From: an uncultured Anaerolineales bacterium
Lineage (GTDB): Bacteria > Chloroflexota > Anaerolineae > UBA7937
Direction: 5' to 3'
Assembly (NCBI GenBank): GCA_964383935.1
Contig: CAYLIE010000001.1
Coordinates: forward strand, 11,073 to 75,072
DNA length: 64,000 nucleotides
Shown: in pieces, positions 2 through 29,298 of the stretch
How positions within the stretch are numbered: position 1 is the stretch's first letter
How the letters are laid out: each line of letters starts with the position of its first letter
Notes under the pieces: generated by a model
Told to the model about the DNA's origin: nothing
The model's input: the letters and a program-made list of their open reading frames with translations, nothing else
The model's database searches: none
Program-made: the position numbers and the translations under genes

Positions 2-130
2 GGCACCATCACTTTGGCTCAGGTGCGGGATCTCTTCTCCACCAGTCGCAAGTACGCCCAAGCCTTCCTAGAAGATTTGGATGCCCAAGGGATCACCAGA
101 AGGGCGGGGGATGAGAGAGTGCTTAGGTAG
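2..130 (+). CDS. selB: selenocysteine-specific elongation factor SelB, C-terminal winged-helix fragment (5' partial, gene runs off window start)
   Basis: Frame-2 translation ...[42 protein letters not shown] matches the conserved SelB C-terminal WH4 motif (RKYA..LE.LD..GiTrR.GD.RVL). Stop TAG at 128-130. Confidence 0.6.
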
Positions 131-139
131 GAGGAGACC

Positions 140-1309
140 TTGCCTCTTGAGTTAGGCCTCATAAGTGAACAGTTGGAGGAGATGGCTCGTGCTTTAAGAG
201 GGATGAAGAGCCAGGAGATAGAGCGGGCTCGCCTCCTATTGAGGGAGACCGACCCTGACAAGTTGAGGGCCAAGATAGAGAAAGCCAAGACCTCTTGGCT
301 CCTGGCTTGGCCTGAAAACACCCTTTCTGGAGCCTATCCTGCCCCGGAGCCTCCTTTGAACTTCAGCGTGGCGGCCACCGATGGCTCTTATATCAGACCA
401 GACCGACACATTCCGGCTCGCTTCGTGGTCATCAATATAGGTTCGGCGCTACTCACCTATGGCGATGACCCTATGGCGCGGCTAGATTCGAAGAGCCATT
501 TCTATTTCCGGGAGGAGGAACTCCGCATCCCCCACCCCTTCAAAGACCTTCATCTGGAGGGAGAGTTTCTGGGGGCCAGACGGACGGTCTTAGAGTTAGA
601 GGCTTTGGTAGAGGTCGCCGCCCAAGGTACAAAACCGGTGGTGGGCCTTCAAGACGGTAGCCTCATCCTTTGGGGGCTGCCTACCACCGATGACCCGGAT
701 GATATCTCGGTGCGAGACCATTTCTTGCATCCTTTTTTGGGAGCCCTCCAAAAGTTGCGGGCCCAGGGCATACCGGTAGCCAGTTACCTCAGTCAGCCTC
801 AGAGCAAAGATGTGGTTAATTCATTGCGAGTTGAGATCTGCGATAACGACCCGGTCAACTGCGATAAGTGCTCTTATGTGGCCCAGCGCCAGCGGCCTAT
901 CTGCAGCCACTTGGCGGGGGTCTTAGACCGTCAGATTTTCGCCACCTTGAAGCCAGGGGAGCGTTCGGATATCTATAAGGGCTCATCGAAGATCCTTCGA
1001 GTGGGATACGGCGGGCAGGGGATATATTTCTTCTACTTGAACGTGGGGCAGGAGATCGTCCGATTGGAGATTCCCCAATGGGTGGCCGGCGATGAGGAGA
1101 AGTTGAACCTCCTCCAGGCCTTGGTTTACGACCAATCTCGGCGGGGTCGAGGGTACCCTTCTGCCTTGCAGGAGGCTCATGAGCAGGCGGTCATCACCGG
1201 GCCCGAGAGACGGGTGGTGGAGAGCCTGGTGGAGCAGGCATTGGCTAGGGAGGGGGTGGAGTTTTTCAGGTCGGGGAAAGCCACCAGCAAAAGGGAGCGA
1301 GGGGTATGA
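140..1309 (+). CDS. nurA: NurA-domain 5'-3' nuclease
   Basis: TTG start 8 nt after a GGAGGAG RBS. NurA-like N-terminal motif 'SVAATDGSYIRPDRHIPARFVVINIG'. Sits in an operon ending in a HerA-like ATPase. Stop overlaps the next start (ATGA at 1306-1309). Confidence 0.65.
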   Translation: MPLELGLISEQLEEMARALRGMKSQEIERARLLLRETDPDKLRAKIEKAKTSWLLAWPENTLSGAYPAPEPPLNFSVAATDGSYIRPDRHIPARFVVINIGSALLTYGDDPMARLDSKSHFYFREEELRIPHPFKDLHLEGEFLGARRTVLELEALVEVAAQGTKPVVGLQDGSLILWGLPTTDDPDDISVRDHFLHPFLGALQKLRAQGIPVASYLSQPQSKDVVNSLRVEICDNDPVNCDKCSYVAQRQRPICSHLAGVLDRQIFATLKPGERSDIYKGSSKILRVGYGGQGIYFFYLNVGQEIVRLEIPQWVAGDEEKLNLLQALVYDQSRRGRGYPSALQEAHEQAVITGPERRVVESLVEQALAREGVEFFRSGKATSKRERGV

Positions 1310-1896
1310 GGATTGGGGAGATCATCCAGACGAGAAGCACCGGTTTCGTAGCCGAGAGTTACCAGTTGCATCAGCCTCCCGCCTTGGGTAGCCTGGTCAA
1401 AGTTAAGGTGGATGATCACCGAGAGATCTACGCCGTGGTTTCCTATGGGGAGACGGGGGGCATCGAACCCGGCCGACGAGCGGTGCGCTGGAGCACCGAT
1501 GAGGTCTTCGATGAGGCGATCTATAAGGAGCACCCAGAACTGAGGCGCACCCTGCGCACCGAGTTCACCGCTCTCCCCGTAGGGAGTGTGGAGGGAGAAG
1601 AGGCGAGGCAGGGGTTGCCTTCTGAGCCTCCACCTATGCATTACTCGGTCTATTTATGCCAGTCGGAGGAGGTACATCGCTTCACCGAGGAACTCTACTA
1701 CCTCCGTCTCCTTCTGACTGGTGAGGGACCGGTTCCCAAGGAGCAACTCTTGGTAACCCACCTGCGAGAGGTCTATCGGGCTCGGGGCAAAGATGAGGAG
1801 TGGCTCTCGAGGGCGGCGCGGGAGATCGCCAGATTGTTAAAGCGGGACTATGACCGGTTGATGACCGTGCTTTTGGGGATAGAGTCAGCTAGTTGA
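1306..1896 (+). CDS. hypothetical protein, NurA/HerA-operon associated; possible small beta-barrel (HAS-barrel-like) protein
   Basis: 196-aa ORF translationally coupled to nurA (ATGA overlap). N-terminus MRIGEIIQTRSTGFVAESYQ...LGSLVKVKVDDHREIYAVVSYGETG resembles a HAS-barrel beta-rich pattern. Codon usage matches the neighbours. No firm homology recognised. Confidence 0.45.
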   Translation: MRIGEIIQTRSTGFVAESYQLHQPPALGSLVKVKVDDHREIYAVVSYGETGGIEPGRRAVRWSTDEVFDEAIYKEHPELRRTLRTEFTALPVGSVEGEEARQGLPSEPPPMHYSVYLCQSEEVHRFTEELYYLRLLLTGEGPVPKEQLLVTHLREVYRARGKDEEWLSRAAREIARLLKRDYDRLMTVLLGIESAS

Positions 1897-1932
1897 GCTA
1901 AGCCAGAGCAATAGATGTGAGAGGCTATTGAA

Positions 1933-2697
1933 GTGGCAAAAGGACGGTATAGATTAGAATTCCCTTTGGAGTCATTCCTTACCTCGGGCAAAGAAATTGG
2001 CTCGCAGGACAAGGGTATCAGACTAGTTCCAAATCCAGACAGGAATAACTTGCTTGACAAAGGAATCGTTGAAATTGAAGCTCGTTCGATGGAGCAAGCG
2101 TGGGATGAAGCGCATGACACTCTATCAGGCTATCTCAGCATTTTGTCTTATGAATATGACTGCCCCATCCGGATCTCAGACCCACCTAGCTGCCACGAAA
2201 TTTCGCCTGCCGCTAGTGGAAGAACCACTCGCAGCGTTTCGCAGACCGCAAGGGCGTATATTGCTGGCTCAGCGCGCATAGACCGTTTACCCGATGTTGC
2301 TAAATATCAATCGATGCAAGTTGCCTTAGCTTGCTATAGGGAGGCCAGAAGTTCTACCAACGAATTTCATCAGTACCTGAACTACTACAAGGTGATAGAG
2401 AATCTTTTGGACGCGAAGGGCACGCCGGGGAAGAAAGGAAAGAAGACCGTGGATGTCCTTCACGAGAAATTGAACGAGGTTGGCGTCACTATTGATAGTA
2501 AGCGTATCAGCCAAGACCAGGCAAAAGAGATATACAAGGATTCCCGGTGCGCTTTAGCCCATGCTGGTAAGCAACCGACTTTGACTAGAGACAGGATAAG
2601 GGATGTGAGAAGAGTTCGCAAAGGGGTGCCAGTAATAAAGGATATTGCGCGGCAGTGTTTAGAGTGGAAAAAGCGATCACTAGAGGCAAGTCCGTAG
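1933..2697 (+). CDS. hypothetical protein with C-terminal Rx4H (HEPN-like) motif; low-GC insert
   Basis: GTG start after a GAGAGG RBS (an ATG at 2089 is an alternative start). GC is about 45% against about 60% for the flanks. C-terminal 'KDSRCALAHAGKQ' matches R-x4-6-H. Confidence 0.5.
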   Translation: MAKGRYRLEFPLESFLTSGKEIGSQDKGIRLVPNPDRNNLLDKGIVEIEARSMEQAWDEAHDTLSGYLSILSYEYDCPIRISDPPSCHEISPAASGRTTRSVSQTARAYIAGSARIDRLPDVAKYQSMQVALACYREARSSTNEFHQYLNYYKVIENLLDAKGTPGKKGKKTVDVLHEKLNEVGVTIDSKRISQDQAKEIYKDSRCALAHAGKQPTLTRDRIRDVRRVRKGVPVIKDIARQCLEWKKRSLEASP

Positions 2698-2706
2698 GAG
2701 AAACTG

Positions 2707-4329
2707 ATGGCACGTAAGCGCTTAGGTGTAGTAACCGATGGAGCCTTCGAGGCGGGGCTCACGGTGCGGCTGGATCCGGGTTGTTCCACCGAGGATTTGC
2801 GGATCGGCAGTTTCGTGGTTGTGGAGGGACGTAGCCATAGGTTCTTCTGCACCATCACCGATATGCGACTGCAAGCCACAGATCCCGGACTTCTGGCTGA
2901 CCCACCTCGTGATGCCTCTCCTTTCGTCACCAGGGCCTTGGCGGGGGTAAGTAGTTACGCTACGGTACAGGTGAAGCCTCATCTCATGCTGGATATATCG
3001 AAAGGAGTGGGAGAGGAGACCCCGCCGGAGCCGGTGCGCACCATCCCCATGCATTTCGCCGAACTCTACGAGGCCTCGGGACTCGATTTCGCCACCGTCT
3101 TCGGCGAGGAGGGAGGGATGAACTTCGCTATGGGGGCTCCCCTCACCATGGAACTCCCCATCTGCCTCCGGCTGGATCGATTCGTGGAGCGTTCCAACGG
3201 CGTCTTCGGCCAGACGGGGACGGGGAAGAGTTTCTTGGCCCGCCTTCTCCTGGCGGGGATCATCAAATCTAAGGCGGCGGTGAACCTGGTCTTCGACATG
3301 CATAACGAGTACGCTTTCGGAGCCCAAACGGAGGATGGGGGGTGGGTCAAGGGGTTGCGCGACCTCTTCGGCCCCCAGGTGCTTGTCTACTCCCTAGATG
3401 AGGAGTGGGGAGCCCGGCGGAATGTGGATGTGACCTTGAAGGTGGGGCTCAACCAGATGGAGTTGGGGGATGTCTTGCTCCTGGCTGAGGAGTTAGAGTT
3501 GAGCCCCACGGCGGTCACCACCGCCGAGTTGGTCTATGCCCGCTTCGGAAGGGGCTGGATGAGAAGGCTGGTGGCGCTGGAGAGTGGCGATAGCGAGGCG
3601 CTGAAGGAGTTTTGCGACCTCACGGGCGCCCAATCGGAGTCCCTGAAAGCCCTTCAACGTAGGGTGAAGCGGATCGCCGGTCGGGAGTATGTGCGAGACG
3701 AGGTGGCCTTCTCCGCCATCGATGAGATGGTGGCCGCTTTGGATAGGGGGCAACATGTGGTCTTGGTTTTTGGCCGCCACGACACACCTCTCGATTATAT
3801 GTTGGTAGCCAATATCGTGGCTCGAAGGGTGCGCCGGCTATATCAAGAGAAGGTAAACAGGTACGAGGGGACGAGAGACGAGGCGGACAAGCCGCAACCT
3901 CTCCTCATCACCTTAGAGGAGGCCCACAAGTTCTTGAGCCCCCAGGTCTCCAGACAGACCATTTTCGGCACCATCGCCCGGGAATTGAGGAAGTTCTATG
4001 TGACCCTCATGGTGATCGACCAGAGGCCCAGTGGGATAGACCCGGAGGTGATGAGCCAGTTAGGGACTCGAGTGACGGGGAAACTCACTGACCAGCGGGA
4101 TATCGACAGCGTTTTCACCGGGGTAGGAGGGCGGAGTTTCTTGCGTGGGGCCTTAGAGAGTCTAAATACCCGTCAAGAGATCCTCATTCTAGGCCACGCC
4201 GTCCCCATGCCCATCGTTCTCAGGACCCGTCAGTACGACGAGGGGTTCTATAGGGCTATGGGGGCTAGAGGTAGGGAAGGGAAAGAGAGGCAGGCTCTCA
4301 AAGATATCGCCGACCTATACGGGGATTAG
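2707..4329 (+). CDS. herA: HerA-like (DUF87/FtsK-HerA superfamily) hexameric ATPase/helicase
   Basis: N-terminal HAS-barrel-like region (GVVTDGAFEAGLTVRLDP...GSFVVVEG). Walker A 'GIFGQTGTGKSF' and Walker B 'LLITLEEAHKFL'. Good RBS AGGAGAAACTG-ATG. Same operon as nurA. Confidence 0.75.
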   Translation: MARKRLGVVTDGAFEAGLTVRLDPGCSTEDLRIGSFVVVEGRSHRFFCTITDMRLQATDPGLLADPPRDASPFVTRALAGVSSYATVQVKPHLMLDISKGVGEETPPEPVRTIPMHFAELYEASGLDFATVFGEEGGMNFAMGAPLTMELPICLRLDRFVERSNGVFGQTGTGKSFLARLLLAGIIKSKAAVNLVFDMHNEYAFGAQTEDGGWVKGLRDLFGPQVLVYSLDEEWGARRNVDVTLKVGLNQMELGDVLLLAEELELSPTAVTTAELVYARFGRGWMRRLVALESGDSEALKEFCDLTGAQSESLKALQRRVKRIAGREYVRDEVAFSAIDEMVAALDRGQHVVLVFGRHDTPLDYMLVANIVARRVRRLYQEKVNRYEGTRDEADKPQPLLITLEEAHKFLSPQVSRQTIFGTIARELRKFYVTLMVIDQRPSGIDPEVMSQLGTRVTGKLTDQRDIDSVFTGVGGRSFLRGALESLNTRQEILILGHAVPMPIVLRTRQYDEGFYRAMGARGREGKERQALKDIADLYGD

Positions 4330-16632: not shown

Positions 16633-17628
16633 ATGTCTCGGGAGATCCGTGTTATCCATTATGGCCTGGGAGCCATCGGTAGTCAGATAGCCAGGCTAGT
16701 CCTTTCCAGGGAAGGGATGCGGTCTGTGGCCGCCATCGATATCGACGAGGGAAAAGCGGGCCGGGATCTGGGCGCGGTGATCGGTCTTGACCGACTTTTG
16801 GATATACCCGTCTCTAAAACCTTGGCCTCCGCTCTGGAGGGGAAAGAGGCTGAGGTGGTTCTCCATTCCACAGGCTCCTTCTTGGAGAAAGTGATCTCCC
16901 AGTTGTGGGAGGTTATCAGCGCTGGCCTCCATATCATCTCCACCTGTGAGGAACTGGCCTACCCCGCGGCTCAGCACCCCAAACTTGCGGTCGAGATCGA
17001 TGCCTTGGCTAAGGAGCGAGGGGTTACGGTCTTAGGCACCGGTGTTAACCCTGGATTCATAATGGACACCCTGCCTCTAGTTATCACCGGGGCTTGCCAG
17101 GAGGTCCAACGGATCTATGTTAGGCGGAGGGTGGATGCTGGTCGCCGCCGGCTCAGCCTGCAGCGGAAGGCGGGAGCGGGGCTCACCCTGACTGGGTTTC
17201 AGGATGGGGTGAAGGCTCGCCGGGTGGGACATATAGGCTTGCGGGAATCGGTGGCCATCATCGCTGGGGCCCTGGGTTGGGAACTAGAATCCATAGAGGA
17301 GAGCCTGGAGCCGGTGATCGCTGAGCGGCCGATGCGTACCCAGTTCTTGGAGGTGGAAGCAGGTCAAGTAGCGGGTGTACATCAGATCGGGCGGGGGATC
17401 AAGGATGGACAAGAGGTGATAACCCTTGACCTAGAGATATGTGTGGGTCTGGAGGGGGCAAAAGATACCATTTCTGTGGAGGGGAGACCCTCTGTCAAGT
17501 TAACTATTGAGGGGGTGCAGGGCGATATCGCCACCGCGGCTATGGTGGTGAACGCCATCCCCCGGATGGTCGATGCGCCGCCGGGCCTGGTGACTATGGC
17601 CGATCTGCCCCTCGTTTGCGCCCCCTAG
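16633..17628 (+). CDS. DapB-like NAD(P)-dependent dehydrogenase (dihydrodipicolinate reductase / 2,4-diaminopentanoate dehydrogenase family)
   Basis: N-terminal Rossmann motif IRVIHYGLGAIGSQIARLV. 331 aa. Co-directional with amino-acid catabolic genes. Confidence 0.55.
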   Translation: MSREIRVIHYGLGAIGSQIARLVLSREGMRSVAAIDIDEGKAGRDLGAVIGLDRLLDIPVSKTLASALEGKEAEVVLHSTGSFLEKVISQLWEVISAGLHIISTCEELAYPAAQHPKLAVEIDALAKERGVTVLGTGVNPGFIMDTLPLVITGACQEVQRIYVRRRVDAGRRRLSLQRKAGAGLTLTGFQDGVKARRVGHIGLRESVAIIAGALGWELESIEESLEPVIAERPMRTQFLEVEAGQVAGVHQIGRGIKDGQEVITLDLEICVGLEGAKDTISVEGRPSVKLTIEGVQGDIATAAMVVNAIPRMVDAPPGLVTMADLPLVCAP

Positions 17629-17814
17629 GGCCAGGCAGGCCTTTACAGATCGCCGCCTAGTCTCTAGTTAGGGGTTATATCTGCCTCGGCAAGGGAGGCT
17701 CTCTCACTTGAGGGAACCTCCCTTTAGGTCTGTCGGAGCCATTTGTGATATAATGAACAACAGTAGCGAACTGTCTTCACATAGTTGTGGGGAAACGATC
17801 CAAGGGAGGATGGA

Positions 17815-18747
17815 ATGCCACTCTTGAGAAGCCTGCTTTTGCGTCTTTCCCGCAGCACGACCCTTCGAGATTTCATCGTGGGGTTCAGTGTCTCCCGGCG
17901 GATGAGTCGCCGCTTCGTGGCTGGGGAGACCCTGGAGGAAGCGATCGAGGCGATCAGGTCTCTGAACCAGAGGGGGATCCTAGCCACCATCGACCACTTG
18001 GGGGAGAACGTCACCTCCCAAGAGGAGGCCCATCAGGCGATGGAGGAGTACCTGAGAGCCCTGGATGGGTTGGCGGATTCGGGGGTGGATTCGGGGGCGA
18101 GCCTCAAACTTACCCAGATGGGGCTTGATATCGATCGTAGTTTCTGCCAAGGGAACGTAGGCCAGATCGTGGAGAAAGCCAAAGGGTATGGTATCTTTGT
18201 GCGGATAGACATAGAGGGCTCACCCCATACGGAGAGGACAATCCAGGTCTATAGAGCCTTGCGGCAGAGGTACGACAACGTGGGGATCGCCATCCAATCC
18301 TATCTTTATCGTTCAGAGGATGATGTACGGCAGATGATACCCCAGGGGTTAAACGTTCGTTTGTGCAAAGGGGCTTACGACGAGCCGCCCGACATCGCCT
18401 TCCCCGATAAGAGGGATGTGGACGCCAACCTGATAAAACTGACGGAGATGCTCCTCACCGAAGAGGCGAGGAGGGCAGGATGCTACCCGGCCCTAGCCAC
18501 TCACGACGAGAGGATCATCAACTGGTGCAAGGAGCACGTTCAAAAAGAGGGTATCGGCAAAGAGGAGTTCGAGTTCCAGATGCTCTACGGCATCCGCCCT
18601 CAGTTACAGCAGGAGTTGGCAGACCAGGGTTATCGGGTTCGGGCCTATGTCCCTTATGGGAATTCTTGGTACCCCTATCTTATGCGCCGCTTGGCTGAGC
18701 GGCCAGCCAACCTCTTTTTCCTTTTGGGGAACCTCTTTAAGGCTTAG
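17815..18747 (+). CDS. proline dehydrogenase (monofunctional PRODH)
   Basis: Start set at MPLLRSLL, which follows an AAGGGAGGA RBS. Conserved PRODH C-terminal region ...YGIRPQLQQELADQGYRVRAYVPYGNSWYPYLMRRLAERPANLFF. Confidence 0.8.
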   Translation: MPLLRSLLLRLSRSTTLRDFIVGFSVSRRMSRRFVAGETLEEAIEAIRSLNQRGILATIDHLGENVTSQEEAHQAMEEYLRALDGLADSGVDSGASLKLTQMGLDIDRSFCQGNVGQIVEKAKGYGIFVRIDIEGSPHTERTIQVYRALRQRYDNVGIAIQSYLYRSEDDVRQMIPQGLNVRLCKGAYDEPPDIAFPDKRDVDANLIKLTEMLLTEEARRAGCYPALATHDERIINWCKEHVQKEGIGKEEFEFQMLYGIRPQLQQELADQGYRVRAYVPYGNSWYPYLMRRLAERPANLFFLLGNLFKA

Positions 18748-18849
18748 TGAGGCGACATTACCAGGTGGTATGGATGAACAGTGTTTGCGATTCGCGGAGT
18801 TTATCCTGACCCCGCAACCTCCCAAAAGATTCGGAGCAAGGAGTTACAA

Positions 18850-20398
18850 ATGAGACCTGAGTTCAAGAATGAGCCCATAATCGATTTTTCCCAGCCGGCC
18901 AACAGGGAGGCGATGGAGAAAGCCCTGGCCCAGGTGGAGTTAGAACTGGGTAGAAGGTACCCTCTCATCATCGGGCGGAGAGAGGGTGGAAACGGGGGAG
19001 GGGTTTGATTCCACAAACCCCTCCCACCCCCGGCAGGTGGTAGGGAGATTCGCCCAGGCGGCTCAGGTGGTGGCTAAGCGGGCGGTGGAGGTGGCTAACG
19101 AGGCGTTCCAGAGGTGGAAGAGGGTAGAGCCAGAGGTGCGAGCCCGTTACCTCTTCAAAGCGGCGGCTGAACTGAGGCGGCGAAGGCTGGAGTTCGACGC
19201 CTGGATGGTCTACGAGGTAGGCAAGAACTGGGTGGAAGCGGATGCCGACACCGCCGAGGCGATAGATTTTCTGGGGATCTATGGTCACCAGATGCTCCGC
19301 TTGGCTTTGCCCCAGCCAGTGACCACCATAGAAGGAGTGGAAAACGAACTGGTCTATATCCCCCTTGGGGCGGGGGCGGTCATCTCTCCCTGGAACTTCC
19401 CTTGTTCCATCATGGTAGGCATGACCATGGCCTCGGTGGTGGCGGGCAATACGGTGGTCTTGAAGCCGGCCTCCACCTCGCCCACCATAGCCGCCAAATT
19501 TATGGAGATATTGGAGGAGGTGAGCCTCCCCCCAGGGGTAGTGAACTTCCTCCCTGGCCCAGGCGGGGTGATAGGTGACACCTTGGTCACACATCCCAAG
19601 ACCCGGTTCATCGCCTTCACCGGTTCCAAGGAGGTGGGGCTGCGGATCAATGAACTTGCGGCCAAGCCCCAAACGGGCCAGGTTTGGATCAAGCGCACCA
19701 TCCTGGAGATGGGAGGCAAGGATGCGGTGGTGGTGGATTCCAGTGCTGACTTGGAGGCGGCCGCGGAAGGGATCGTCACCTCCGCTTTTGGGTACCAGGG
19801 GCAGAAATGCTCCGCAGGCTCTCGAGCCATCATCTTGGATGATGTCTATGATCAGGTGGTGGATAGAGTGGTGGCCCTTGCGGCGAAACTCACCATCGGC
19901 CCGGTGACAGACCCCCATAACTACCTAGGTCCAGTCATCGACCAAGCGGCCTTTGACAAGATAATGGGGTATATCGAGATCGGGAGGAGGGAGGCCAACT
20001 TATTGGCAGGTGGCCAGCGCGCCATAGAGGAAGGTTACTTCATCCAACCCACCATCTTCGGGGATGTGCCCCCTGAGGCTCGCATCGCCCAGGAGGAGAT
20101 TTTCGGGCCGGTGCTTTCCATTATAAGGGCCCGAGATTTCGATCATGCTCTGGAGATTGCCAACGCCACCGAGTATGGTTTGACGGGGGCGGTCTATAGC
20201 CGCAACCGAGAACATCTGGAGCAGGCCCGCCGAGAGTTTCATGTAGGCAACCTCTACTTCAACCGCAAATGCACCGGGGCCCTGGTGGGGGTGGAGCCTT
20301 TTGGAGGCTTCAATATGAGCGGCACTGACTCCAAAGCCGGGGGCCGAGATTATCTCTTGCTCTTCACCCAAGCCAAATCCATCTCAGAGCGGCTCTAA
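18850..20398 (+). pseudogene. 1-pyrroline-5-carboxylate dehydrogenase (ALDH family), interrupted by a 1-nt frameshift near 18995
   Basis: N-terminus MRPEFKNEPIIDFSQPANREAMEKALAQVELELGRRYPLIIGRRE in one frame, body (V)ETGEGFDSTNPSHPRQVVG...470 aa in the +1 frame. Join lies in the G-run gagagggtggaaacggggg. Removing one G restores a continuous RocA-like protein. Confidence 0.6.
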
Positions 20399-20402
20399 GA
20401 GT

Positions 20403-21011
20403 TTGTGGGAGGATGATGTGGAGAAGACGCCCAGCACAGACAAGAGCCTGGAGGAGTTGACGGACCGGGCTCGGCGGATGGCTCTCCGCTACGTGGAGGT
20501 GAGCCCCTATCGCCTGAACCCCGACCAGGATATCTGGGAGGGGATCGTCAAGGGTATAGGTCGACAGGCTTATACCTTCGGTTGGCCCTACTGTCCTTGA
20601 CAGGAGCGGACCGGCGATCCCGTGGAGGATCGCAAATTCATCTGTCCTTGCTACCGCCACGAACAAGATATCGCCGAGACCGGCCATTGCATCTGCCACC
20701 TCTTCGTGAGCGAGGATTATCGACCGCCGAAGATGGAGAGCCCACCTATCCGAGAGGAGGGTAGCCCCTGGCCTCGCATCGTGGTCTATGGCACATACTG
20801 GTGTAGCGACACCATCCGCACCAGGCGTTTCCTCAACCGCCATGGTGTTCCTTTCACCCTCATCGACGTGGACAAAGATCCCCAGGCAGCCCAGAGAGTG
20901 AAGGAGTGGAACCGAGGTTTCCTCTCCACCCCCACGTTGGATATCGAGGGGCATATCGTCACTGAGCCCTCGGACGAAGAGCTAGCGAGACTTCTGGGGA
21001 TAGAGGCGTAG
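20403..21011 (+). CDS. candidate selenoprotein: ferredoxin-thioredoxin reductase catalytic-subunit-like domain fused to a glutaredoxin-like domain; in-frame TGA (20598-20600) read as Sec
   Basis: ORFs 20403-20600 (...YTFGWPYCP*) and 20622-21011 (FICPCYRHEQDIAETGHCICHLF...VVYGTYWCSDTIRTRRFL...) share a frame. Reading through gives GWPYCP-U-QERTGDPVEDRKFICPC...CHC, the FTR-C pattern CPC-x15-CPC-x-CHC with the second Cys of the first CPC replaced by TGA. selB is present in the window. TTG start 20403 or GTG 20418. Confidence 0.55.
20614..20633 (+). promoter_or_regulatory. candidate bacterial SECIS hairpin 13 nt downstream of the in-frame TGA
   Basis: GCGATCC-cgtgga-GGATCGC, 7-bp perfect stem with a GU-containing apical loop. 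Position fits the bacterial SECIS window (+11 to +37 from UGA). Confidence 0.45.
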
Positions 21012-21072: not shown

Positions 21073-21942
21073 TTGATGCAGATAGATTTCTTTAGCCTAC
21101 TATGGATCGTCTTCATTATCATGACCTTGATCCCGGCCATCAACCGCAGGCTCGTAGAGAGGAGCCGGCAACGGTTGATGCGGGCCATGGAGGAGAAGCG
21201 AGGATCGAGGCTCATCACCCTCATCCATCGCCAAGAGGCCTTGAGTTTCTTGGGGATAGCCTTCTCTAGGTACATAGACATCGAGGACTCGGAGCAGGTT
21301 CTGCGGGCTATCCGCCTCACCCCCGAGGATCTGCCTATAGACATCGTCCTCCATACCCCGGGAGGCTTGGTCTTGGCTGCGGAGCAGATCGCCCACGGCC
21401 TGGTGAAGCATAAGGCCAAGGTCACGGTTTTTGTGCCCCATTACGCCATGTCGGGAGGGACTTTCGTGGCCTTGGCGGCGGATGAGATTGTGATGGAGGA
21501 GAACGCCGTTCTGGGCCCCGTCGATCCTCAGTTGGGGAAATACCCTGCCGCTTCCATCCTCACCGTCTCCGAGGTTAAGGATATAAACGAGATGGACGAT
21601 GAAACCCTCATCCTCTCCGATATGGCTCGCAAAGCCCAGAAACAGGTGCACGCGTGTCTGGTGGAGATCCTTGTGGCCAACGATATGCCTCAGGATAAGG
21701 CGGAGAAGATAGCCACGACCCTAAGTTGTGGCCAGTGGACCCATGACTACCCCATCACCTTTGAAGAGGCGAAGGAACTGGGGTTACCTGTCTCCTCCGA
21801 CCTGCCGAACGAGGTCTATCAATTGATGGAACTTTTCCCCCAGGCAGCAGGCCGGCGACCCTCGGTGGAGTATATCCCTCTCCCCTACCGCCGCGAAGAA
21901 CCGCCAGAGAAGCAGAAGGGCCAGAGTTGGAGATACTCTTAG
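21073..21942 (+). CDS. SDH-family / ClpP-SppA-fold serine protease-like protein (S49-like)
   Basis: N-terminal TM segment, then 'IVLHTPGGLVLAAEQIAHGL' and 'HYAMSGGTFVALAADEIVM', typical of the Clp/S49 fold. Confidence 0.55.
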   Translation: MMQIDFFSLLWIVFIIMTLIPAINRRLVERSRQRLMRAMEEKRGSRLITLIHRQEALSFLGIAFSRYIDIEDSEQVLRAIRLTPEDLPIDIVLHTPGGLVLAAEQIAHGLVKHKAKVTVFVPHYAMSGGTFVALAADEIVMEENAVLGPVDPQLGKYPAASILTVSEVKDINEMDDETLILSDMARKAQKQVHACLVEILVANDMPQDKAEKIATTLSCGQWTHDYPITFEEAKELGLPVSSDLPNEVYQLMELFPQAAGRRPSVEYIPLPYRREEPPEKQKGQSWRYS

Positions 21943-22616
21943 ATTTCGACTTGGAGTTGGAAACCTCTCGCATCCTGGAGCTCCTGGGCGGCACGACCCT
22001 AAAGGAGGAGCGCTATCTACAAGTGATCCAGGGGATGATCCATCGGGCCCGGGGACTCCTGGAGCCGGTGATCCTCTACGACCTCTTCTCCGTGGAGGAG
22101 ATACACCCTGGAGAGGTGGTGTTGAAAGAGGCGAGACTGAGGAGCAAGGGGCTGGCCAAACTTTGGGTTCAGGCCCGTGAGATAGCCTTGATCCTCTGCA
22201 CCATCGGGCCGGCCCTGGATGAGCAGGTCTCCGCCTACTTCATCGCCTCCGACCCCCTTGGGGGCCTGGTCCTAGATGCTATAGGGACCGCCGCCCTCGA
22301 GGAGTTGGCGGAGGAAGCTTGCCGCCTCATAGCGGAGATAGCCAAGGAGAAGGGTTGGGAGGCCAGCGCCCCCCTCAGCCCGGGGAACCTGGATTGGGAT
22401 CTAGAGGAGCAGCGAGTCTTCTTCGCTCTCTTGCCCGCAGAGGGGATAGGGCTCCGGTTAAAGGAGAGTTACCAGATGACCCCTCTGAAATCGCTCTCCC
22501 TGGCCATGGGGCTGGGAGAGGAGGTTCTTCCTTCCATAGAGGAGTCACCCTGCGCCTACTGCTCCTTGGGTGGGAGGTGTAGATATCGCCGAGAGATAGA
22601 GCCCCTTCCAAGGTAG
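21927..22616 (+). CDS. methionine synthase B12 activation-domain-like protein
   Basis: 229 aa. Motif 'YQMTPLKSLSLAMGLG' resembles the M.P..S.SG..F signature of the MetH activation domain. TTG start overlapping the previous gene's end. Confidence 0.4.
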   Translation: MEILLDFDLELETSRILELLGGTTLKEERYLQVIQGMIHRARGLLEPVILYDLFSVEEIHPGEVVLKEARLRSKGLAKLWVQAREIALILCTIGPALDEQVSAYFIASDPLGGLVLDAIGTAALEELAEEACRLIAEIAKEKGWEASAPLSPGNLDWDLEEQRVFFALLPAEGIGLRLKESYQMTPLKSLSLAMGLGEEVLPSIEESPCAYCSLGGRCRYRREIEPLPR

Positions 22617-22656: not shown

Positions 22657-23043
22657 CTAGGCCGGCTGTTTCGCCTTCTGCTTTTCCAAGTAATCCTCAA
22701 TGGCCGCATGGATGGCATCGGCCGCCAGGTTAGAGCAGTGCATCTTGATGGGGGGAAGGCCGTCCAAAGCCTCGGCTACCGCTTTGTTAGTTATCTCCAT
22801 CGCCTCTTCTATAGTTTTCCCCTTCACCATCTCCGTAGCCATGGAACTAGTGGCGATAGCCGCCCCACAGCCGAAGGTGCGGAATTTGATATCCGCTATG
22901 CGGTCATCTTTTACCTTGATGAAGATCTCCATCAGGTCGCCACAGACGGGGTTCCCTTCTTTCCCCACACCATCTGGATCTTCTATTACCCCCACATTGT
23001 GGGGGTTCATAAAATGCTCCATCACCTTTTCAGAGTACATCAA
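22657..23043 (-). CDS. nifU: Fe-S cluster assembly scaffold NifU/IscU
   Basis: MMYSEKVMEHFMNPHNVG...NPVCGDLMEIFIKV...FGCGAAIATSS...HCSNLAADAI, the three conserved Cys of IscU-type scaffolds. Confidence 0.85.
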   Translation of the reverse strand: MMYSEKVMEHFMNPHNVGVIEDPDGVGKEGNPVCGDLMEIFIKVKDDRIADIKFRTFGCGAAIATSSMATEMVKGKTIEEAMEITNKAVAEALDGLPPIKMHCSNLAADAIHAAIEDYLEKQKAKQPA

Positions 23044-23064
23044 GAGGGTTCCTTTCTCCCTAGT

Positions 23065-24240
23065 TTACGGAGCCGTGGTGTAGAGGGGTGACATGGAACG
23101 GAGCCGCTCCACTATCCCCGGCAAGAGTTCCAGTAGATAGCCCACATCCTTCTCGCTGTTCTCGTGGCCCAGGGTGAGGCGTAAAGAGCCATGGGCTACC
23201 TCGGGAGGGATGCCCATGGCCAAAAGGACGTGGGAGGGCTCCAGGGAGGCCGAGGTACAGGCGGAACCGCTGGAAGCGGCTATGCCCATCATATCCAAGC
23301 CCAGAAGCATCCCTTCCCCCTCTACGTAATTTATGGTAAAACTGGCGTTATTGGGCAGCCTCTCTTTAGGGTGACCGGTCAACTGGGTGTCCGGGATGGA
23401 GGAGAGGATGTCCTCGATTAAGCGGTCTCGGAGGGCTACGAGTTTGCGATTGTTCTCCTCCCGGTGCTCTTGGGCCAACTTGAGCGCCGTGGCCAACCCC
23501 ACGATGCCGGCCACGTTCTCCGTACCCGCCCGTCGGTTCAGTTCATGGGACCCGCCGGTCTGGGTGGGGAGAAGCCGCACTCCTCGCCGCAGGTAGAGAA
23601 CCCCCACCCCCTTGGGCCCGTAGAGCTTGTGGGCCGAAAGCGAGAGAAGATCTGCCTTAAGGGCTTTTACATCTAGGTCTAGGGCTCCTCCCGCCTGGAC
23701 GGCGTCGGTGTGGAAGGGTATCTTGTGGGCTCGAGCGATCTCCCCTATCTCGGCGATGGGCTCGATGGTCCCCACCTCGTTGTTGGCATACATAATGGTG
23801 ATGAGGATCGTCTTTTCGGTGATAGCTTTCTCCACATCGGCGGGATCGACACGGCCGTACTTATCTACCGGCAGATAAGTGACCTGAAAGCCAAAATGCC
23901 TCTCCAGTTGCTCGCAGGTGTGACCCACGGCGTGGTGCTCGATGGAAGAGGTGATGATATGGTTCCCCTTGCCCCGGTCCATGAAGGCTATACCTCGGAT
24001 GGCCAAATTATCGCTCTCCGAGCCGCAACTGGTGAAAACTATCTCTCTGGAAGTGCAGTTTAAGATCTGGGCCACATCGGCCCGGGCCTCATCTATCGCT
24101 TTGCGTGCCTCCTGTCCTAGGCGATAGACGCTGGAGGCGTTGCCGTACCCCTCGGTGAGGTAGGGGAGCATAGCCTCCACCACCCGGGGGTCCACCGGGG
24201 TGGTAGCCGCATGATCCATATATACCGTACGCTTGGCCAT
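23065..24240 (-). CDS. nifS: cysteine desulfurase (NifS/IscS family)
   Basis: PLP-dependent class V pattern with active-site loop 'SSGSACTS'. 391 aa. Confidence 0.85.
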   Translation of the reverse strand: MAKRTVYMDHAATTPVDPRVVEAMLPYLTEGYGNASSVYRLGQEARKAIDEARADVAQILNCTSREIVFTSCGSESDNLAIRGIAFMDRGKGNHIITSSIEHHAVGHTCEQLERHFGFQVTYLPVDKYGRVDPADVEKAITEKTILITIMYANNEVGTIEPIAEIGEIARAHKIPFHTDAVQAGGALDLDVKALKADLLSLSAHKLYGPKGVGVLYLRRGVRLLPTQTGGSHELNRRAGTENVAGIVGLATALKLAQEHREENNRKLVALRDRLIEDILSSIPDTQLTGHPKERLPNNASFTINYVEGEGMLLGLDMMGIAASSGSACTSASLEPSHVLLAMGIPPEVAHGSLRLTLGHENSEKDVGYLLELLPGIVERLRSMSPLYTTAP

Positions 24241-24243
24241 CTT

Positions 24244-25173
24244 TCAGACTCCTTCGAAAAGTTCGGTGCTTAGATACCTTTCCCCTGTATCGGGCAGGAC
24301 TGCGACGATCAGTTTGCCTTTGTTCTCTGGCCTCTTGGCTACCTCTAAGGCGGCGAAGGCGGCAGCGCCAGAGGAGATACCTGCCAGGATCCCTTCCTCC
24401 TTGGCTAGCCGCCGAGCCATGGTTGCGGCATCCTCGTTTTTTACCTGGAAGACCTCGTCTACGAGGTCCAATTGTAAGACGTCGGGGACGAAGCCAGCAC
24501 CTATCCCTTGGATAGGGTGGGGCCCTGGCTCTCCGCCCGAGAGGACCGGGGAGGCGGCTGGCTCCACGGCGATGGCCTTGAAGTTGGGTTTGAGAGGTTT
24601 TATCACCTCCGCCACGCCGGTGATGGTTCCTCCTGTTCCCACGCCGACCACGACAATATCTACTTTCCCCTCGGTATCCTCCCAGATCTCTTTAGCCGTG
24701 GTTCGGCGATGGATCTCCGGGTTGGCTGGGTTCTTGAACTGCTGGGGGATGAAATACCTGGGATCCCGGGCCGCTAACTCTTCGGCCTTCCTTACCGCCC
24801 CGGGCATCCCTTCGGCTCCGGGAGTCAAGATGAGTTCCGCACCGAAAGCCTTAAGCAACTTTCTCCGCTCTACCGTCATCGTTTCGGGCATGGTGAGAAC
24901 CAGCCTATACCCCTTTGCTGCGCAGACGAAAGCCAGAGCGATGCCCGTATTGCCGCTGGTTGGTTCCAAGATGATGGTATCCTCTTGGATGAGACCTTCC
25001 CGTTCCGCGGCCTCGATCATGCTAACTCCGATCCTGTCCTTGACGCTGGCCAAAGGGTTGAAGGACTCCAGTTTGGCAAGCACGGTGGCCTCCACCCCCC
25101 TTGTGACCTTGTTTAACCTCACGAGAGGTGTGTTGCCGATAGTTTCAGTGATATCTTCGTAGATCCTTCCCAT
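24244..25173 (-). CDS. cysK: cysteine synthase A (O-acetylserine sulfhydrylase)
   Basis: [10 protein letters not shown]...ASVKDRIG...[10 protein letters not shown], classic CysK motifs. 309 aa. Confidence 0.85.
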
Positions 25174-25175
25174 GC

Positions 25176-25955
25176 TCAGGCCTCACTTTCTCGCTCTATT
25201 GTCCCCTCTTGGCTAGCGAGAGCGTTCTCTAACTCCTGAACCCTCCCTTCCAAAGTGGTAATTTTCGATGCCAAGCCGTTGATCGCCTCTACTACCGGGT
25301 CGGGGAGTTTACCATGTTCCAGGGTCAGAAAGGTAGGCTCCTCAGCCCCTTCTCCCTTCACCACCCTTCCGGGCACGCCCACCACCGTCGCTCCTGGGGA
25401 CACGGGTTTAACCACTACTGAGCCAGAGCCGATCTTGGCATGGTCCCCGATGGTAACGGCTCCCAAGACGATGGCATCCGACCCCAGAACCACACAATTC
25501 CCGATGGTGGGGTGGCGCTTTGTCTTCCTCAGAGATGTCCCTCCCAATACCACCCCTTTATACATGAGGACATCGTCGCCAATCTCCGCCGTCTCCCCGA
25601 TCACTATACCCATCCCGTGGTCGATGAAGAGTCGGCGGCCGATCTTAGCCCCGGGATGGATCTCTATACCGGTAAGAAAGCGGTTGATATGGGAGAGGAG
25701 ACGGCCCCAAAAGAGCAAATTACGCTCCCAGAGGAGATGGGCTACCCGGTGCATCCAGATGGCGTGGAGGCCGGGGTAGAAGAAGAGTACCTCCAGTGTG
25801 CTTTTGGCTGCCGGATCTTTGGCGAAGACGGTGTCGATATCCTCTCGAAGCCAAGCGAGCATCTCTTGCCACCGACCTAGAACCCCTCTGGAGCGAGGAT
25901 CGCTCTCCTCGGCTGGTTCTGGGGTTAACCTTTCTACCCTGTCGCACTCGACCAT
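25176..25955 (-). CDS. cysE: serine O-acetyltransferase
   Basis: SATase N-domain followed by hexapeptide repeats [45 protein letters not shown]-terminal extension present. Confidence 0.8.
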
Positions 25956-27111: not shown

Positions 27112-27768
27112 TTGCGAATCGACCTCCACGTGCACACCGCCTATTCCTACGATTGCTGGATGTCCCCTCAGGCGGTGATGAGGGCCGTGCAGCGGAATAA
27201 CAAGGTAGACGCCATCGCCGTCCTGGACCATGACGAAATAGAAGGGGCCCTTAGGCTGGCCGAGGTCGCCCCCTTTCCGGTGATAGTGGGGGAGGAGGTG
27301 CTCACCAAAGAGGGAGAGATAGGGGGGATATTCCTTAAGGAGAGGATCCCTCCAGGGCTGCCTCTAAAAGAGACGGTGGATAGGATCAAGGAGCAAGGGG
27401 GGCTGGTATATGCCACCCACCCTCTGGCTCGGGATGTGCCCAAGAGCGTGGGGCGCGAGGCTCTGGAGTCGATCATAGATAGGATAAATATCATCGAAGG
27501 TTTCAACGCTCGCATCCGGCATAAATCCGATAACGAAGAGGCGAAAGAGATAGCCCAAAGGCACGGCATCGCCGTGGCCGCAGGGAGCGATGCCCATTTC
27601 CCCTGGGAGATCGGGCGAGCAGGTATCGAGATAGCCCCCTCCTCTACCCCCCAAGAGTTCTTAGAAAACCTCCGTCAGGCCCGAATATTTGGCCGGCGAA
27701 CTCCTTATATCTTCGCCGGCCTCACATACATCATCTGGTGTGCTCATAGGTTTCTAAAGCGGTTATAG
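27112..27768 (+). CDS. PHP-domain metal-dependent phosphoesterase
   Basis: MRIDLHVHTAYSYD...AVLDHD...YATHP, PHP histidine/aspartate motifs. TTG start. An extended -10 (TGATATAAT near 26955) lies upstream. Confidence 0.7.
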   Translation: MRIDLHVHTAYSYDCWMSPQAVMRAVQRNNKVDAIAVLDHDEIEGALRLAEVAPFPVIVGEEVLTKEGEIGGIFLKERIPPGLPLKETVDRIKEQGGLVYATHPLARDVPKSVGREALESIIDRINIIEGFNARIRHKSDNEEAKEIAQRHGIAVAAGSDAHFPWEIGRAGIEIAPSSTPQEFLENLRQARIFGRRTPYIFAGLTYIIWCAHRFLKRL

Positions 27769-29298
27769 GCGAGTCTCCAGCAACCCCTCGATCTGAGCCA
27801 TCAGTTCCTCTGTCCTATCTTCGAAGCCTCCTATCTGCTCCTCGAAGGCTCTAGCCAGGTCCTCATCGGCGAGGGAGGTGGCGTTGGTGCGCACGTTGAG
27901 GGCTGAGCCGCGCACCGCGGCCTTCGCCATCTGGGCCGCCGTCCCTGTGTCGGGCAGGACGTTGGGGTTACCTTTCTCGGCCACGGTGAGCAAGACCTCT
28001 AAGACTTTCACCGCCCTATCGGCCACGGCCAAAGGGACGCTAGCCGCACCACGGAGGGCCATCTGAACGGCCATCGTCCGGCTCTCTTTTTCCTCTTCTG
28101 TATCCTTAGGCAGGCTGTAGGCCGCCAGCAACGCCTCGAAGGCTTGGGCATCCTCCTCGATAAAGGCGAAGAGATCCTTTTGGAGACCTCGTGCCTGTTC
28201 CAAGGCCGCCCTCATCTCCTTCTCCGCCTCGGCGTACTCCTCTTTCCCCACCGTCAATTGGCAGGCCATGCTGGCCAGGGCCGCGGCTAAAGCCCCGGAG
28301 AGGGCGGCTACGCTCCCTCCCCCCGGGGTGGGTGAAGGGCTTGCCACCTCCTCCAAGAAGGCCCTCATATCCGCTTTGGGCTCCGCTACCAGAGCCTCCT
28401 CTGGCACCTCCAGTTGCCTCTCCAGAACCTGCTCCTCGGAGAGATCTTCCAGTCGCAAATAGTATTCCGCGCTCTCTAGGAGGGCTCCCTCCGGCACCAG
28501 CCCCACGATCTCGCTTCCCACCACTGTTACCCCATACCGGGCTGCCTCTCGTCTGATCATCTCGAAAACGCGATAGAGAGGCGTCTGGTGGTAGTTGGTC
28601 ATGTTCATAGAGACTTGAGCCAGCCCCCGCTGGGCGATATAGAGCCCTAGGGCTTTCACATATCTTAGGCCTCCAGAGGAGTGGCGGATGGCTCTAGCGA
28701 TCTTTTGGGCGACCTCCACATCGTCGGCATTCAAGTAAACGTTATAGGCGATGAGAGGGTCGCGGGCTCCCACCACCGTGGCCCCGGCCTTGCCTAATTG
28801 CCGTGGGCCGTAGTCTGGCTCTCGATCCAGATCGGTCTCGATCGTCTCCTTGAGCCCCTCGTATTCGCCGCGGCGGATGTAGGCCAAATCTTTTCTCTCT
28901 GGCCTGGTGGCGGCTTTCTCATAGAGGTAGACCGGTATCGAGAGTTCGGCGCCTATCCGCTCCCCTAGCCGCCTAGCCATCTGGACGCACTCTTCCATGG
29001 TGACCCCCCTCAGGGGGATCAAGGGCACGACGTCCGTGGCGCCGACCCTAGGGTGCTCTCCCTGATGCTCTTCCATATCTATCAGTTCCGCCGCCTTTTT
29101 CACGGCCCGGAAGGCTGCCTCCTCCACCGGCTCTGGCTCGCCAGCAAAGGTCACCACGGCCCGGTTGTGATCGGCGTCCATCTGAAGATCTAAGAGTTGG
29201 GCCCCCCTAACTCCTGTGATCTCGGCCATTATTTGATCGATGACCTCTTTCCTTCTCCCTTCGCTGAAGTTGGGGACGCATTCCACGAGCCTTCGCAT
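27763..29298 (-). CDS. glutamate formimidoyltransferase / formiminotetrahydrofolate cyclodeaminase (bifunctional FTCD-like)
   Basis: N-terminal MRRLVECVPNFSEGRR...HPRVGATDVVPLIPL (formiminotransferase) and a C-terminal helical cyclodeaminase-like domain. 511 aa. Confidence 0.75.
   Translation of the reverse strand: MRRLVECVPNFSEGRRKEVIDQIMAEITGVRGAQLLDLQMDADHNRAVVTFAGEPEPVEEAAFRAVKKAAELIDMEEHQGEHPRVGATDVVPLIPLRGVTMEECVQMARRLGERIGAELSIPVYLYEKAATRPERKDLAYIRRGEYEGLKETIETDLDREPDYGPRQLGKAGATVVGARDPLIAYNVYLNADDVEVAQKIARAIRHSSGGLRYVKALGLYIAQRGLAQVSMNMTNYHQTPLYRVFEMIRREAARYGVTVVGSEIVGLVPEGALLESAEYYLRLEDLSEEQVLERQLEVPEEALVAEPKADMRAFLEEVASPSPTPGGGSVAALSGALAAALASMACQLTVGKEEYAEAEKEMRAALEQARGLQKDLFAFIEEDAQAFEALLAAYSLPKDTEEEKESRTMAVQMALRGAASVPLAVADRAVKVLEVLLTVAEKGNPNVLPDTGTAAQMAKAAVRGSALNVRTNATSLADEDLARAFEEQIGGFEDRTEELMAQIEGLLETRL

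Follow-up and report, generated by a model that had tools for sequence, protein, structure and literature searches.

Does an in-frame TGA in the genome of an uncultured Anaerolineales bacterium end one gene just ahead of another, or does it encode selenocysteine (Sec)? The question is raised by two plus-strand open reading frames (ORFs; 20403–20600 and 20622–21011) within a 64,000-nt stretch of contig CAYLIE010000001.1, hereafter termed the window, to which all coordinates refer. Both ORFs lie in one frame, and the TGA at 20598–20600 is its sole interruption. An initial annotation, made from the sequence alone, had proposed that read-through of this codon yields a selenoprotein in which a domain resembling the catalytic subunit of ferredoxin-thioredoxin reductase (FTR) is fused to a glutaredoxin-like domain. 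Our analysis leads us to hold with considerable confidence that positions 20418–21011 constitute a single gene for a 197-residue selenoprotein, whose UGA would be read as Sec by SelB with the aid of a bacterial selenocysteine insertion sequence (bSECIS) inside the coding sequence, and which combines a domain of the ferredoxin disulfide reductase (FDR) type with a one-cysteine glutaredoxin (Grx)-like domain. Sec-containing FTR/FDR-like reductases are already known as a group; within it, the protein belongs to a sister subfamily that is missing from the curated models available at present.

The interrupted frame and the hairpin behind it

Inspection of the sequence confirmed that nothing but the TGA separates the two ORFs. 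The read-through product runs ...GWPYCP, the stop, QERTGDPVEDRKFICPCYRHEQDIAETGHCICHLF..., and then VVYGTYWCSDT...; with Sec in place of the stop, the surrounding peptide reads ...GWPYCP-U-QERTGDPVEDRKFICPCYRHEQDIAETGHCICHLFVSEDY...RIVVYGTYWCSDT.... When the stop was replaced by Cys, Pfam assigned residues 23–110 of the read-through frame to FeThRed_B (PF02943; 67.6 bits against a gathering score of 22; E = 1.2e-18) and residues 126–185 to Glutaredoxin (PF00462; 43.7 bits against a gathering score of 22.9; E = 3.2e-11), in agreement with the proposed fusion. As the FeThRed_B match spans the TGA, this codon splits the FTR-like domain, parting its first cysteine motif from the second. The motifs themselves had been described as CPC-x15-CPC-x-CHC. 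While the pattern of CPx motifs with Cys or Sec is indeed present, the third motif is CIC rather than CHC, and the layout is CPU-x14-CPC-x12-CIC.

Translation probably begins at GTG 20418 and not at the alternative in-frame TTG at 20403, judging from a GGGAGG sequence 5 nt upstream of the GTG and from the alignment of this position with M, V or L starts in ~40 homologues. On the minus strand, an antisense ORF of 196 residues (20364–20954) covers nearly the entire gene; in view of the strong domain matches and the conservation pattern on the plus strand, this ORF is most likely a spurious product of the high GC content.

Homologous DNA was taken from species-representative genomes and from metagenomes, the named genomes being Anaerolineales/Anaerolineae metagenome-assembled genomes (MAGs) and the others sediment metagenomes. 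The TGA is in frame at 44 related loci, window included, of which ~40 are intact on both flanks. Median pairwise ratios of nonsynonymous to synonymous substitution (dN/dS) amount to 0.12 for the part upstream of the TGA (57 codons) and 0.09 for the part downstream (40 codons), indicating both halves to be translated in this frame. An alignment of homologues, as recommended in the initial annotation, revealed Sec and Cys codons alike at the position in question, with the Cys forms in the minority. Three full-length proteins retrieved by protein search (P0001–P0003, 62–66% identity) contain GWPYCPCQQRTGD, in which Cys takes the place of the TGA, and four loci (L035, L046, L048 and L049, of which L048 and L049 are the loci of P0001) carry TGC there; the sequence GWPYCPCQQR is found in P0001–P0003, L035, L046 and L048. 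The genomic context of the Cys-form gene is unrelated to that of the window gene. We take the TGA at 20598–20600 to be, with high probability, a genuine codon for selenocysteine.

A SECIS-like hairpin of 7 bp, starting 13 nt after the TGA, had also been predicted, and it was recovered as such: GCGAUCC (20614–20620) pairs with GGAUCGC (20627–20633), enclosing the loop CGUGGA. The stem conserved across the family comprises 6 bp (20615–20620 with 20627–20632), and the hairpin sequence occurs once in the window. In all 34 unique TGA genes, codons +5 to +10 (GGC GAT CCC GTG GAG GAT) are invariant, as is the leading CG of codon +11, and a codon-by-codon scan of these genes found 2 of ~91 degenerate codons to be invariant outside this block. 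The chance of six invariant degenerate codons occurring in a row is ~1e-8 to 1e-10. Proteins of the Cys form vary in the peptide that the hairpin would encode (PEEDKK, PQEDKK, AQEDKK). In the TGC-form genes L035, L048 and L049, the 3′ arm of the hairpin is lost and the best local folds reach −4 to −5 kcal/mol; the hairpin energy ranges from −8.6 to −12.0 kcal/mol across the Sec forms and is −12.0 kcal/mol in the window.

RNAalifold, applied to the family, returned a consensus hairpin of 6 bp (CGAUCC/GGAUCG, loop CGUGGA, −8.49 kcal/mol). The passages of PMC13188914 that set out the published bSECIS model give a loop of 3–9 nt, an upper stem of 4–16 bp, a UGA-to-loop distance of 16–37 nt and a minimum free energy of at most −7.5 kcal/mol, together with a G in the first two loop positions (N1-G-[G/U]-N-N2-N). 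With a loop of 6 nt, a stem of 6–7 bp, a spacing of 20 nt and an energy of −8.5 (consensus) or −12.0 kcal/mol (window), the hairpin lies within all four ranges. The second loop base is G and is followed by U, which fits the loop pattern when C is taken as N1 and G as N2.

Some relatives have copies of the gene that are degraded. One such copy (L005; CAZBJW010000074.1, 4001–4327) is a second copy in the MAG that harbours L003 and has acquired extra stops, CR instead of CP ahead of the stop and a G-to-C change in the loop; two others (L040 and L050) are frameshifted. The divergent copy L050 was tried as a source of covariation and rejected, since its frameshift left no clean covariation.

Table 1 Coordinates of the gene, its predicted signals and the selB remnant in the window
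Feature	Positions	Strand	Description
selB 3′ end	2–130	+	C-terminal winged helix and TGA stop; 42 codons; Pfam SelB-wing_3 PF09107, 66.8 bits, 1.2e-18
Shine-Dalgarno-like GGGAGG	20407–20412	+	5 nt ahead of GTG 20418; read from the sequence
Full read-through coding sequence	20418–21011	+	197 codons including Sec61; GTG start, TAG stop at 21009–21011
FTR catalytic-subunit-like (FDR-type) domain	20469–20732	+	PF02943, 67.6 bits; PDB 4tpu 2.5e-15, 7pwe 7e-15
Predicted [4Fe-4S]/redox residues	20592–20696	+	C59 20592–20594, U61 20598–20600, C76 20643–20645, C78 20649–20651, C91 20688–20690, C93 20694–20696
In-frame TGA, predicted Sec codon	20598–20600	+	U61 in the motif C59-P60-U61; aligned with Cys57 of Synechocystis FTRc
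Predicted bSECIS core	20613–20633	+	Invariant 20-nt block 20613–20632; stem 20614/15–20620 with 20627–20632/33; apical loop CGUGGA 20621–20626
Glutaredoxin-like (mycoredoxin/YruB/NrdH-like) domain	20778–20957	+	PF00462, 43.7 bits; monothiol W-C129-S-D-T, Cys codon 20802–20804

Kinship with the Sec-containing FTR family

The suggestion, made in the initial annotation, that no Sec-containing FTR-like reductase is known among bacterial selenoproteins did not hold: such a family was published in 2008 and has since been modelled as NF041072. Homologues of the FTR catalytic subunit were described by Zhang & Gladyshev (2008) as a new selenoprotein family in Global Ocean Sampling (GOS) metagenomes, one GOS read having Sec at both redox-active cysteine positions (PMC2398784). 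Two reviews list a Sec-FTR family with a CxU motif, and one of them names NCBIfam NF041072. This model, designated ‘FtrB family double-selenoprotein’, is the best NCBIfam match of the window protein, which reaches 106.3 bits and so falls short of the cut-off of 160. The GOS sequence (Dataset S2, PMC2398784), passing from GYRYCPU via GDPVEDRKK and ICPC to CIU, obtains 187.5 bits on NF041072; across 95 residues, it shares 45% identity with the window protein.

Like the members of NF041072, the window protein has Sec in the first CPU motif, equivalent to FTR Cys57, and the layout CPx-x14-CPC-x12-CIx; both have the SECIS stem GCGAUCC/GGAUCG at equal offset, where it encodes GDPVEDRK, and both are associated with a Grx-like redoxin. 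In the DNA of the marine family, the stem GCGAUCC...GGAUCG(U/C) again begins 13 nt past the first UGA, with loops AGUUGA, CGUUGA or CGGUGA. The shared stem and offset argue that the SECIS element is homologous between the subfamilies, its loop varying within the G-[G/U] rule. The second UGA of the marine family has a hairpin of its own (GCGAAGA-GUU-UCUUCGC), and the corresponding site is Cys in all 34 unique TGA genes (TGC in 27, TGT in 7). Unlike the marine family with its two Sec residues (CPU...CIU), the window protein has one and scores below the cut-off. Its Grx-like partner is fused and has a monothiol CxxT motif, whereas that of the marine family is a separate downstream selenoprotein gene with a UGPC motif. 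The two also differ in source, the window subfamily stemming from Anaerolineae and sediment and the NF041072 family from marine surface samples.

At the marine ftrB loci L051–L061, the next gene downstream (~1130–1378 in L051, ~1040–1270 in L056) is small, Grx/NrdH/YruB-like and interrupted by a TGA in frame. Its UGPC active site lies in the sequence ...VFTSVG-U-GPCHMVKVY..., and gene callers begin it past the TGA. Database entries P0292–P0300, representing marine FtrB proteins, show Trp at both UGA positions (CPW...CIW), apparently as a result of code-4/25-type translation of those contigs.

Counter-evidence and alternative readings

Several observations weigh against Sec insertion at this locus and concern the decoding machinery, the hairpin and its coupling to the TGA. 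The window starts inside selB, as initially stated and as borne out by the PF09107 match of its first 42 codons, and these 42 codons are all of selB that is visible. Neither selA nor selD was seen in the 64-kb window, and a tRNA scan of the window found no tRNA and hence no tRNA-Sec. RNAalifold detected no covarying pair, the stem being invariant, so that the structural case is one of conservation and not of compensatory covariation. Compared with shuffled sequences, the 73-nt region folds with ordinary energy (z = −0.98); that the hairpin exceeds chance follows from the comparative data and not from its folding energy. Searches of Rfam gave no match, either across the whole window at the gathering threshold or within 20560–20700 at E up to 10, a result that is uninformative given that Rfam has no fitting bacterial SECIS model. 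Finally, the marine locus L062 has TGC at the first site (565–567) and TGA only at the second, while retaining the hairpin with the loop CGUGGA found in the window. Hairpin and TGA are therefore imperfectly coupled across the wider family, and L062 may represent a recent Sec-to-Cys change.

Three outcomes had been named at the outset as speaking against a selenoprotein, namely homologues that end at the TGA and are followed by a separate gene, a genome devoid of Sec genes, and a hairpin outside the SECIS criteria. As far as they were testable, none of them arose.

What other fate might the UGA have? Near-cognate or SelB-independent suppression could place Cys or Trp there, with the hairpin serving merely to stimulate read-through, and some pipelines do place Trp at the UGA of the homologous marine genes (P0292–P0300, see above). 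The hairpin, however, fits the consensus of SelB-type bSECIS elements in both loop and spacing, selB is present, and TGA acts as a stop in other genes. Moreover, the position is that of the redox-active nucleophile, where exchange between Cys and Sec is the rule and where Trp would destroy the active site. We therefore regard decoding as anything but Sec as improbable.

Even less credit is due to the view implied by the public annotation of homologues, in which the TGA is an ordinary stop that divides an N-terminal fragment of 60–65 residues from a separate 129-residue ‘mycoredoxin/glutaredoxin’ starting at GTG 20622. Gene callers have produced more than 100 clusters of 127–139 residues (mostly 128–131) that start just past the TGA, and N-terminal fragments ending in ...WPYCP have been called as well. 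In addition, TGA serves as an ordinary stop for ~11 of the 43 long ORFs in the window, which shows the code to be standard rather than reassigned; a scan of the window for ORF pairs joined by TGA yielded no other convincing selenoprotein candidate. Yet two separate genes would cut the FeThRed_B domain between its cluster-binding motifs, and GTG 20622 sits within the invariant hairpin loop, lacking a ribosome-binding site of its own. That 44 loci preserve the frame and the TGA, that both flanks are under purifying selection and that full-length Cys forms exist likewise speaks against this division, which leaves the synonymous freeze after the TGA unexplained. A pseudogene, or an assembly or sequencing error in the window, can be dismissed despite the degraded copies in relatives (L005, L040 and L050), the window copy being intact on both sides and sharing its architecture and low dN/dS with ~40 independent intact copies.

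The proposed enzyme and its genomic setting

What might the selenoprotein do? By its sequence, its modelled fold and the spacing CPC-x14-CPC-x12-CxC, the N-terminal domain is of the FDR type. Alignments to 1dj7, 7bzk and 4tpu match U61 with Cys57 and C93 with Cys87 of Synechocystis FTRc, and C59, C76, C78 and C91 with the four cluster ligands; all six columns are invariant in the family alignments. Putative roles were assigned to these residues by alignment with FTRc Cys55/57/74/76/85/87 and from the FTR literature. Of 115 family members, 102 have a CxxT and 13 a CxxS motif in the Grx-like domain, and in 104 this domain contains a single Cys. A dithiol CxxC or a CGFS-type active site is not present, and the window protein scores below the cut-off of every NCBIfam Grx equivalog.

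The Cys homologue P0003 was modelled with AlphaFold (AF2) on an alignment supplemented with FtrB sequences. The predicted local distance difference test (pLDDT) score reached 84–96 in the FTR-like and 82–90 in the Grx-like domain; an earlier model of P0003, built on a shallow N-terminal alignment, had remained below 50 in the FTR-like domain and was not usable. A Foldseek search with the P0003 model ranked 4TPU and 7PWE first and second (7PWE with a root-mean-square deviation of 1.7 Å over 86 columns at 30% identity), and the second domain matched Grx, Mrx1 and BC3987-type redoxins. The model points to two folded domains connected by a flexible linker of roughly 15–20 residues.

Among characterized structures, 4TPU, the FDR of Methanosarcina acetivorans, is the best PDB sequence match and has the identical CPC-x14-CPC-x12-CxC spacing, with a residue other than His in the middle of the third motif (CYC there, CIC here). 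In what PMC6262447 relates of Kumar et al. 2015 and Prakash et al. 2018, FDR has a C-terminal rubredoxin and acts on separate thioredoxin (Trx)/NrdH-type proteins. The window protein differs from it in having Sec, and a Grx-like domain in place of the rubredoxin. 7PWE, a glutaredoxin/ferredoxin disulfide reductase fusion of Desulfotalea psychrophila, likewise unites an FDR-type domain and a Grx fold in one chain; its Grx domain is N-terminal, in contrast to the C-terminal one here, and it has CPC where the window protein has Sec. A paper on 7PWE was not found in the literature searched. Canonical FTR shares with the window protein the Pfam family PF02943, the fold and the six aligned cysteine positions, while the sequence match is only ~1e-3 to 1e-4, FTRc has the layout CPC-x16-CPC-x8-CHC, and Ile replaces the His of CHC in our protein. 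Canonical FTRc acts on free thioredoxins. Pfam gave no match to the variable subunit, FTRv, for the immediate flanking ORFs (the P5C dehydrogenase, the SDH-type protease and a 229-residue ORF), although no dedicated FTRv search was made.

Fusion of FTR-like domains to redoxins recurs, as exemplified by 7PWE and by the Trx fusions P0173 and P0201, and the Cys-only relatives P0142 and P0146–P0148 combine an FTR-like domain with one to three monothiol Grx-like domains. Already known, then, are Sec in the CPU motif and a Grx/FDR fusion, the latter in the opposite order and with Cys (7PWE). The combination of Sec, an FDR-type domain and a C-terminal one-Cys Grx is undescribed, as far as the searched literature shows.

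A possible mechanism can be drawn by homology to FTR and FDR. While the sequences themselves show the continuity of the gene, the conserved UGA, the Cys homologues, the SECIS signature, selB, the identity of both domains and the spacing of the motifs, we infer Sec insertion, a [4Fe-4S] cluster, ferredoxin as the donor, a U61–C93 bond and a relay to C129. The cluster would be held by C59, C76, C78 and C91, with U61 and C93 forming a redox-active selenenylsulfide beside it. Two successive one-electron transfers from reduced ferredoxin, passed on by the cluster, would open the U61–C93 bond, whereupon the U61 selenolate could attack the tethered Grx-like domain, a built-in acceptor, at a disulfide or mixed disulfide carried by its C129. 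The Grx-like domain would then reduce disulfides or S-thiolated targets. Dai and colleagues, as cited in PMC2398784, are said to have described, in 2007, FTR Cys57 as the exposed nucleophile of a Cys57–Cys87 disulfide beside the [4Fe-4S] cluster, forming a transient heterodisulfide with thioredoxin. Since Cys57 is the nucleophile of FTR, placing Sec at this position makes chemical sense. That ftrB and a Grx-like gene are adjacent in one lineage and fused in another suggests the redoxin to be the direct acceptor of the FTR-like domain.

Taken as a whole, a self-contained, ferredoxin-driven and selenium-dependent monothiol reductase, in which U61–C93 reduces a mixed disulfide on the Grx-like Cys, is a tentative proposal to which we give less than even credence. 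Three results limit the inferred mechanism. In the P0003 model, linker residues 105–118 have a pLDDT below 50 and the predicted template modelling (pTM) score is 0.63, such that the model does not define how the domains pack and any contact of U61 with C129 would be hypothetical. BLAST did not align the fused Grx domain with the UGPC Grx-like protein of the marine family, and the argument from redoxin partnership thereby holds at the level of the family only. Nor did the flanking genes within ~1.6 kb offer a clue to the substrate, none being common to the fusion family beyond close relatives.

Immediately upstream of the gene (16633–20398, plus strand) lie genes for a 2,4-diaminopentanoate dehydrogenase-like protein, a proline dehydrogenase (ProDH) and an aldehyde dehydrogenase of the pyrroline-5-carboxylate (P5C) type. 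Linkage of ProDH and the P5C-type dehydrogenase to the selenoprotein gene is seen in close relatives only; the order ProDH, P5C dehydrogenase (P5CDH), selenoprotein gene, SDH-type protease is kept only among relatives above roughly 80–85% protein identity. The 229-residue ORF (21927–22616, plus strand), whose C-terminus is rich in Cys (CAYCSLGGRCRYR), has no Pfam or NCBIfam match; close relatives retain it downstream of the SDH-type protease.

Further downstream, cysE, cysK, nifS and nifU occupy 22657–25955 and score as ordinary equivalogs. The operon had been noted in the initial annotation as a potential source of a NifS-type selenocysteine lyase. It does exist, but on the minus strand, opposite to the selenoprotein gene, and the lyase link found no support: NifS scores 564.8 bits as a cysteine desulfurase (cut-off 530.75) and 116.7 bits as SclA (cut-off 525), and was rejected as a selenocysteine lyase. 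Elsewhere in the window, selB is directly followed (140–4329, plus strand) by a NurA-domain gene, an unassigned ORF of 196 residues, a MauJ-like-domain gene and a HerA-like ATPase gene, which look like a NurA/HerA-type cluster, possibly with a role in defence or repair. A single minus-strand ORF at 27763–29298 combines a glutamate formimidoyltransferase (FtcD) domain with a methenyl-tetrahydrofolate cyclohydrolase (FchA-like) domain.

More than 100 public protein clusters of this subfamily are cut at the UGA, bear the names mycoredoxin or glutaredoxin and fall below the NF041072 cut-off; a dedicated model would fix the annotation of what is a widespread selenoprotein of Anaerolineae. The Sec-FTR family reaches from marine plankton to sediment Chloroflexota, with one SECIS hairpin inherited across both subfamilies. 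If the proposed activity is true, anaerobic Anaerolineae would gain a de-thiolation and disulfide-reducing module that requires neither NADPH nor glutathione.

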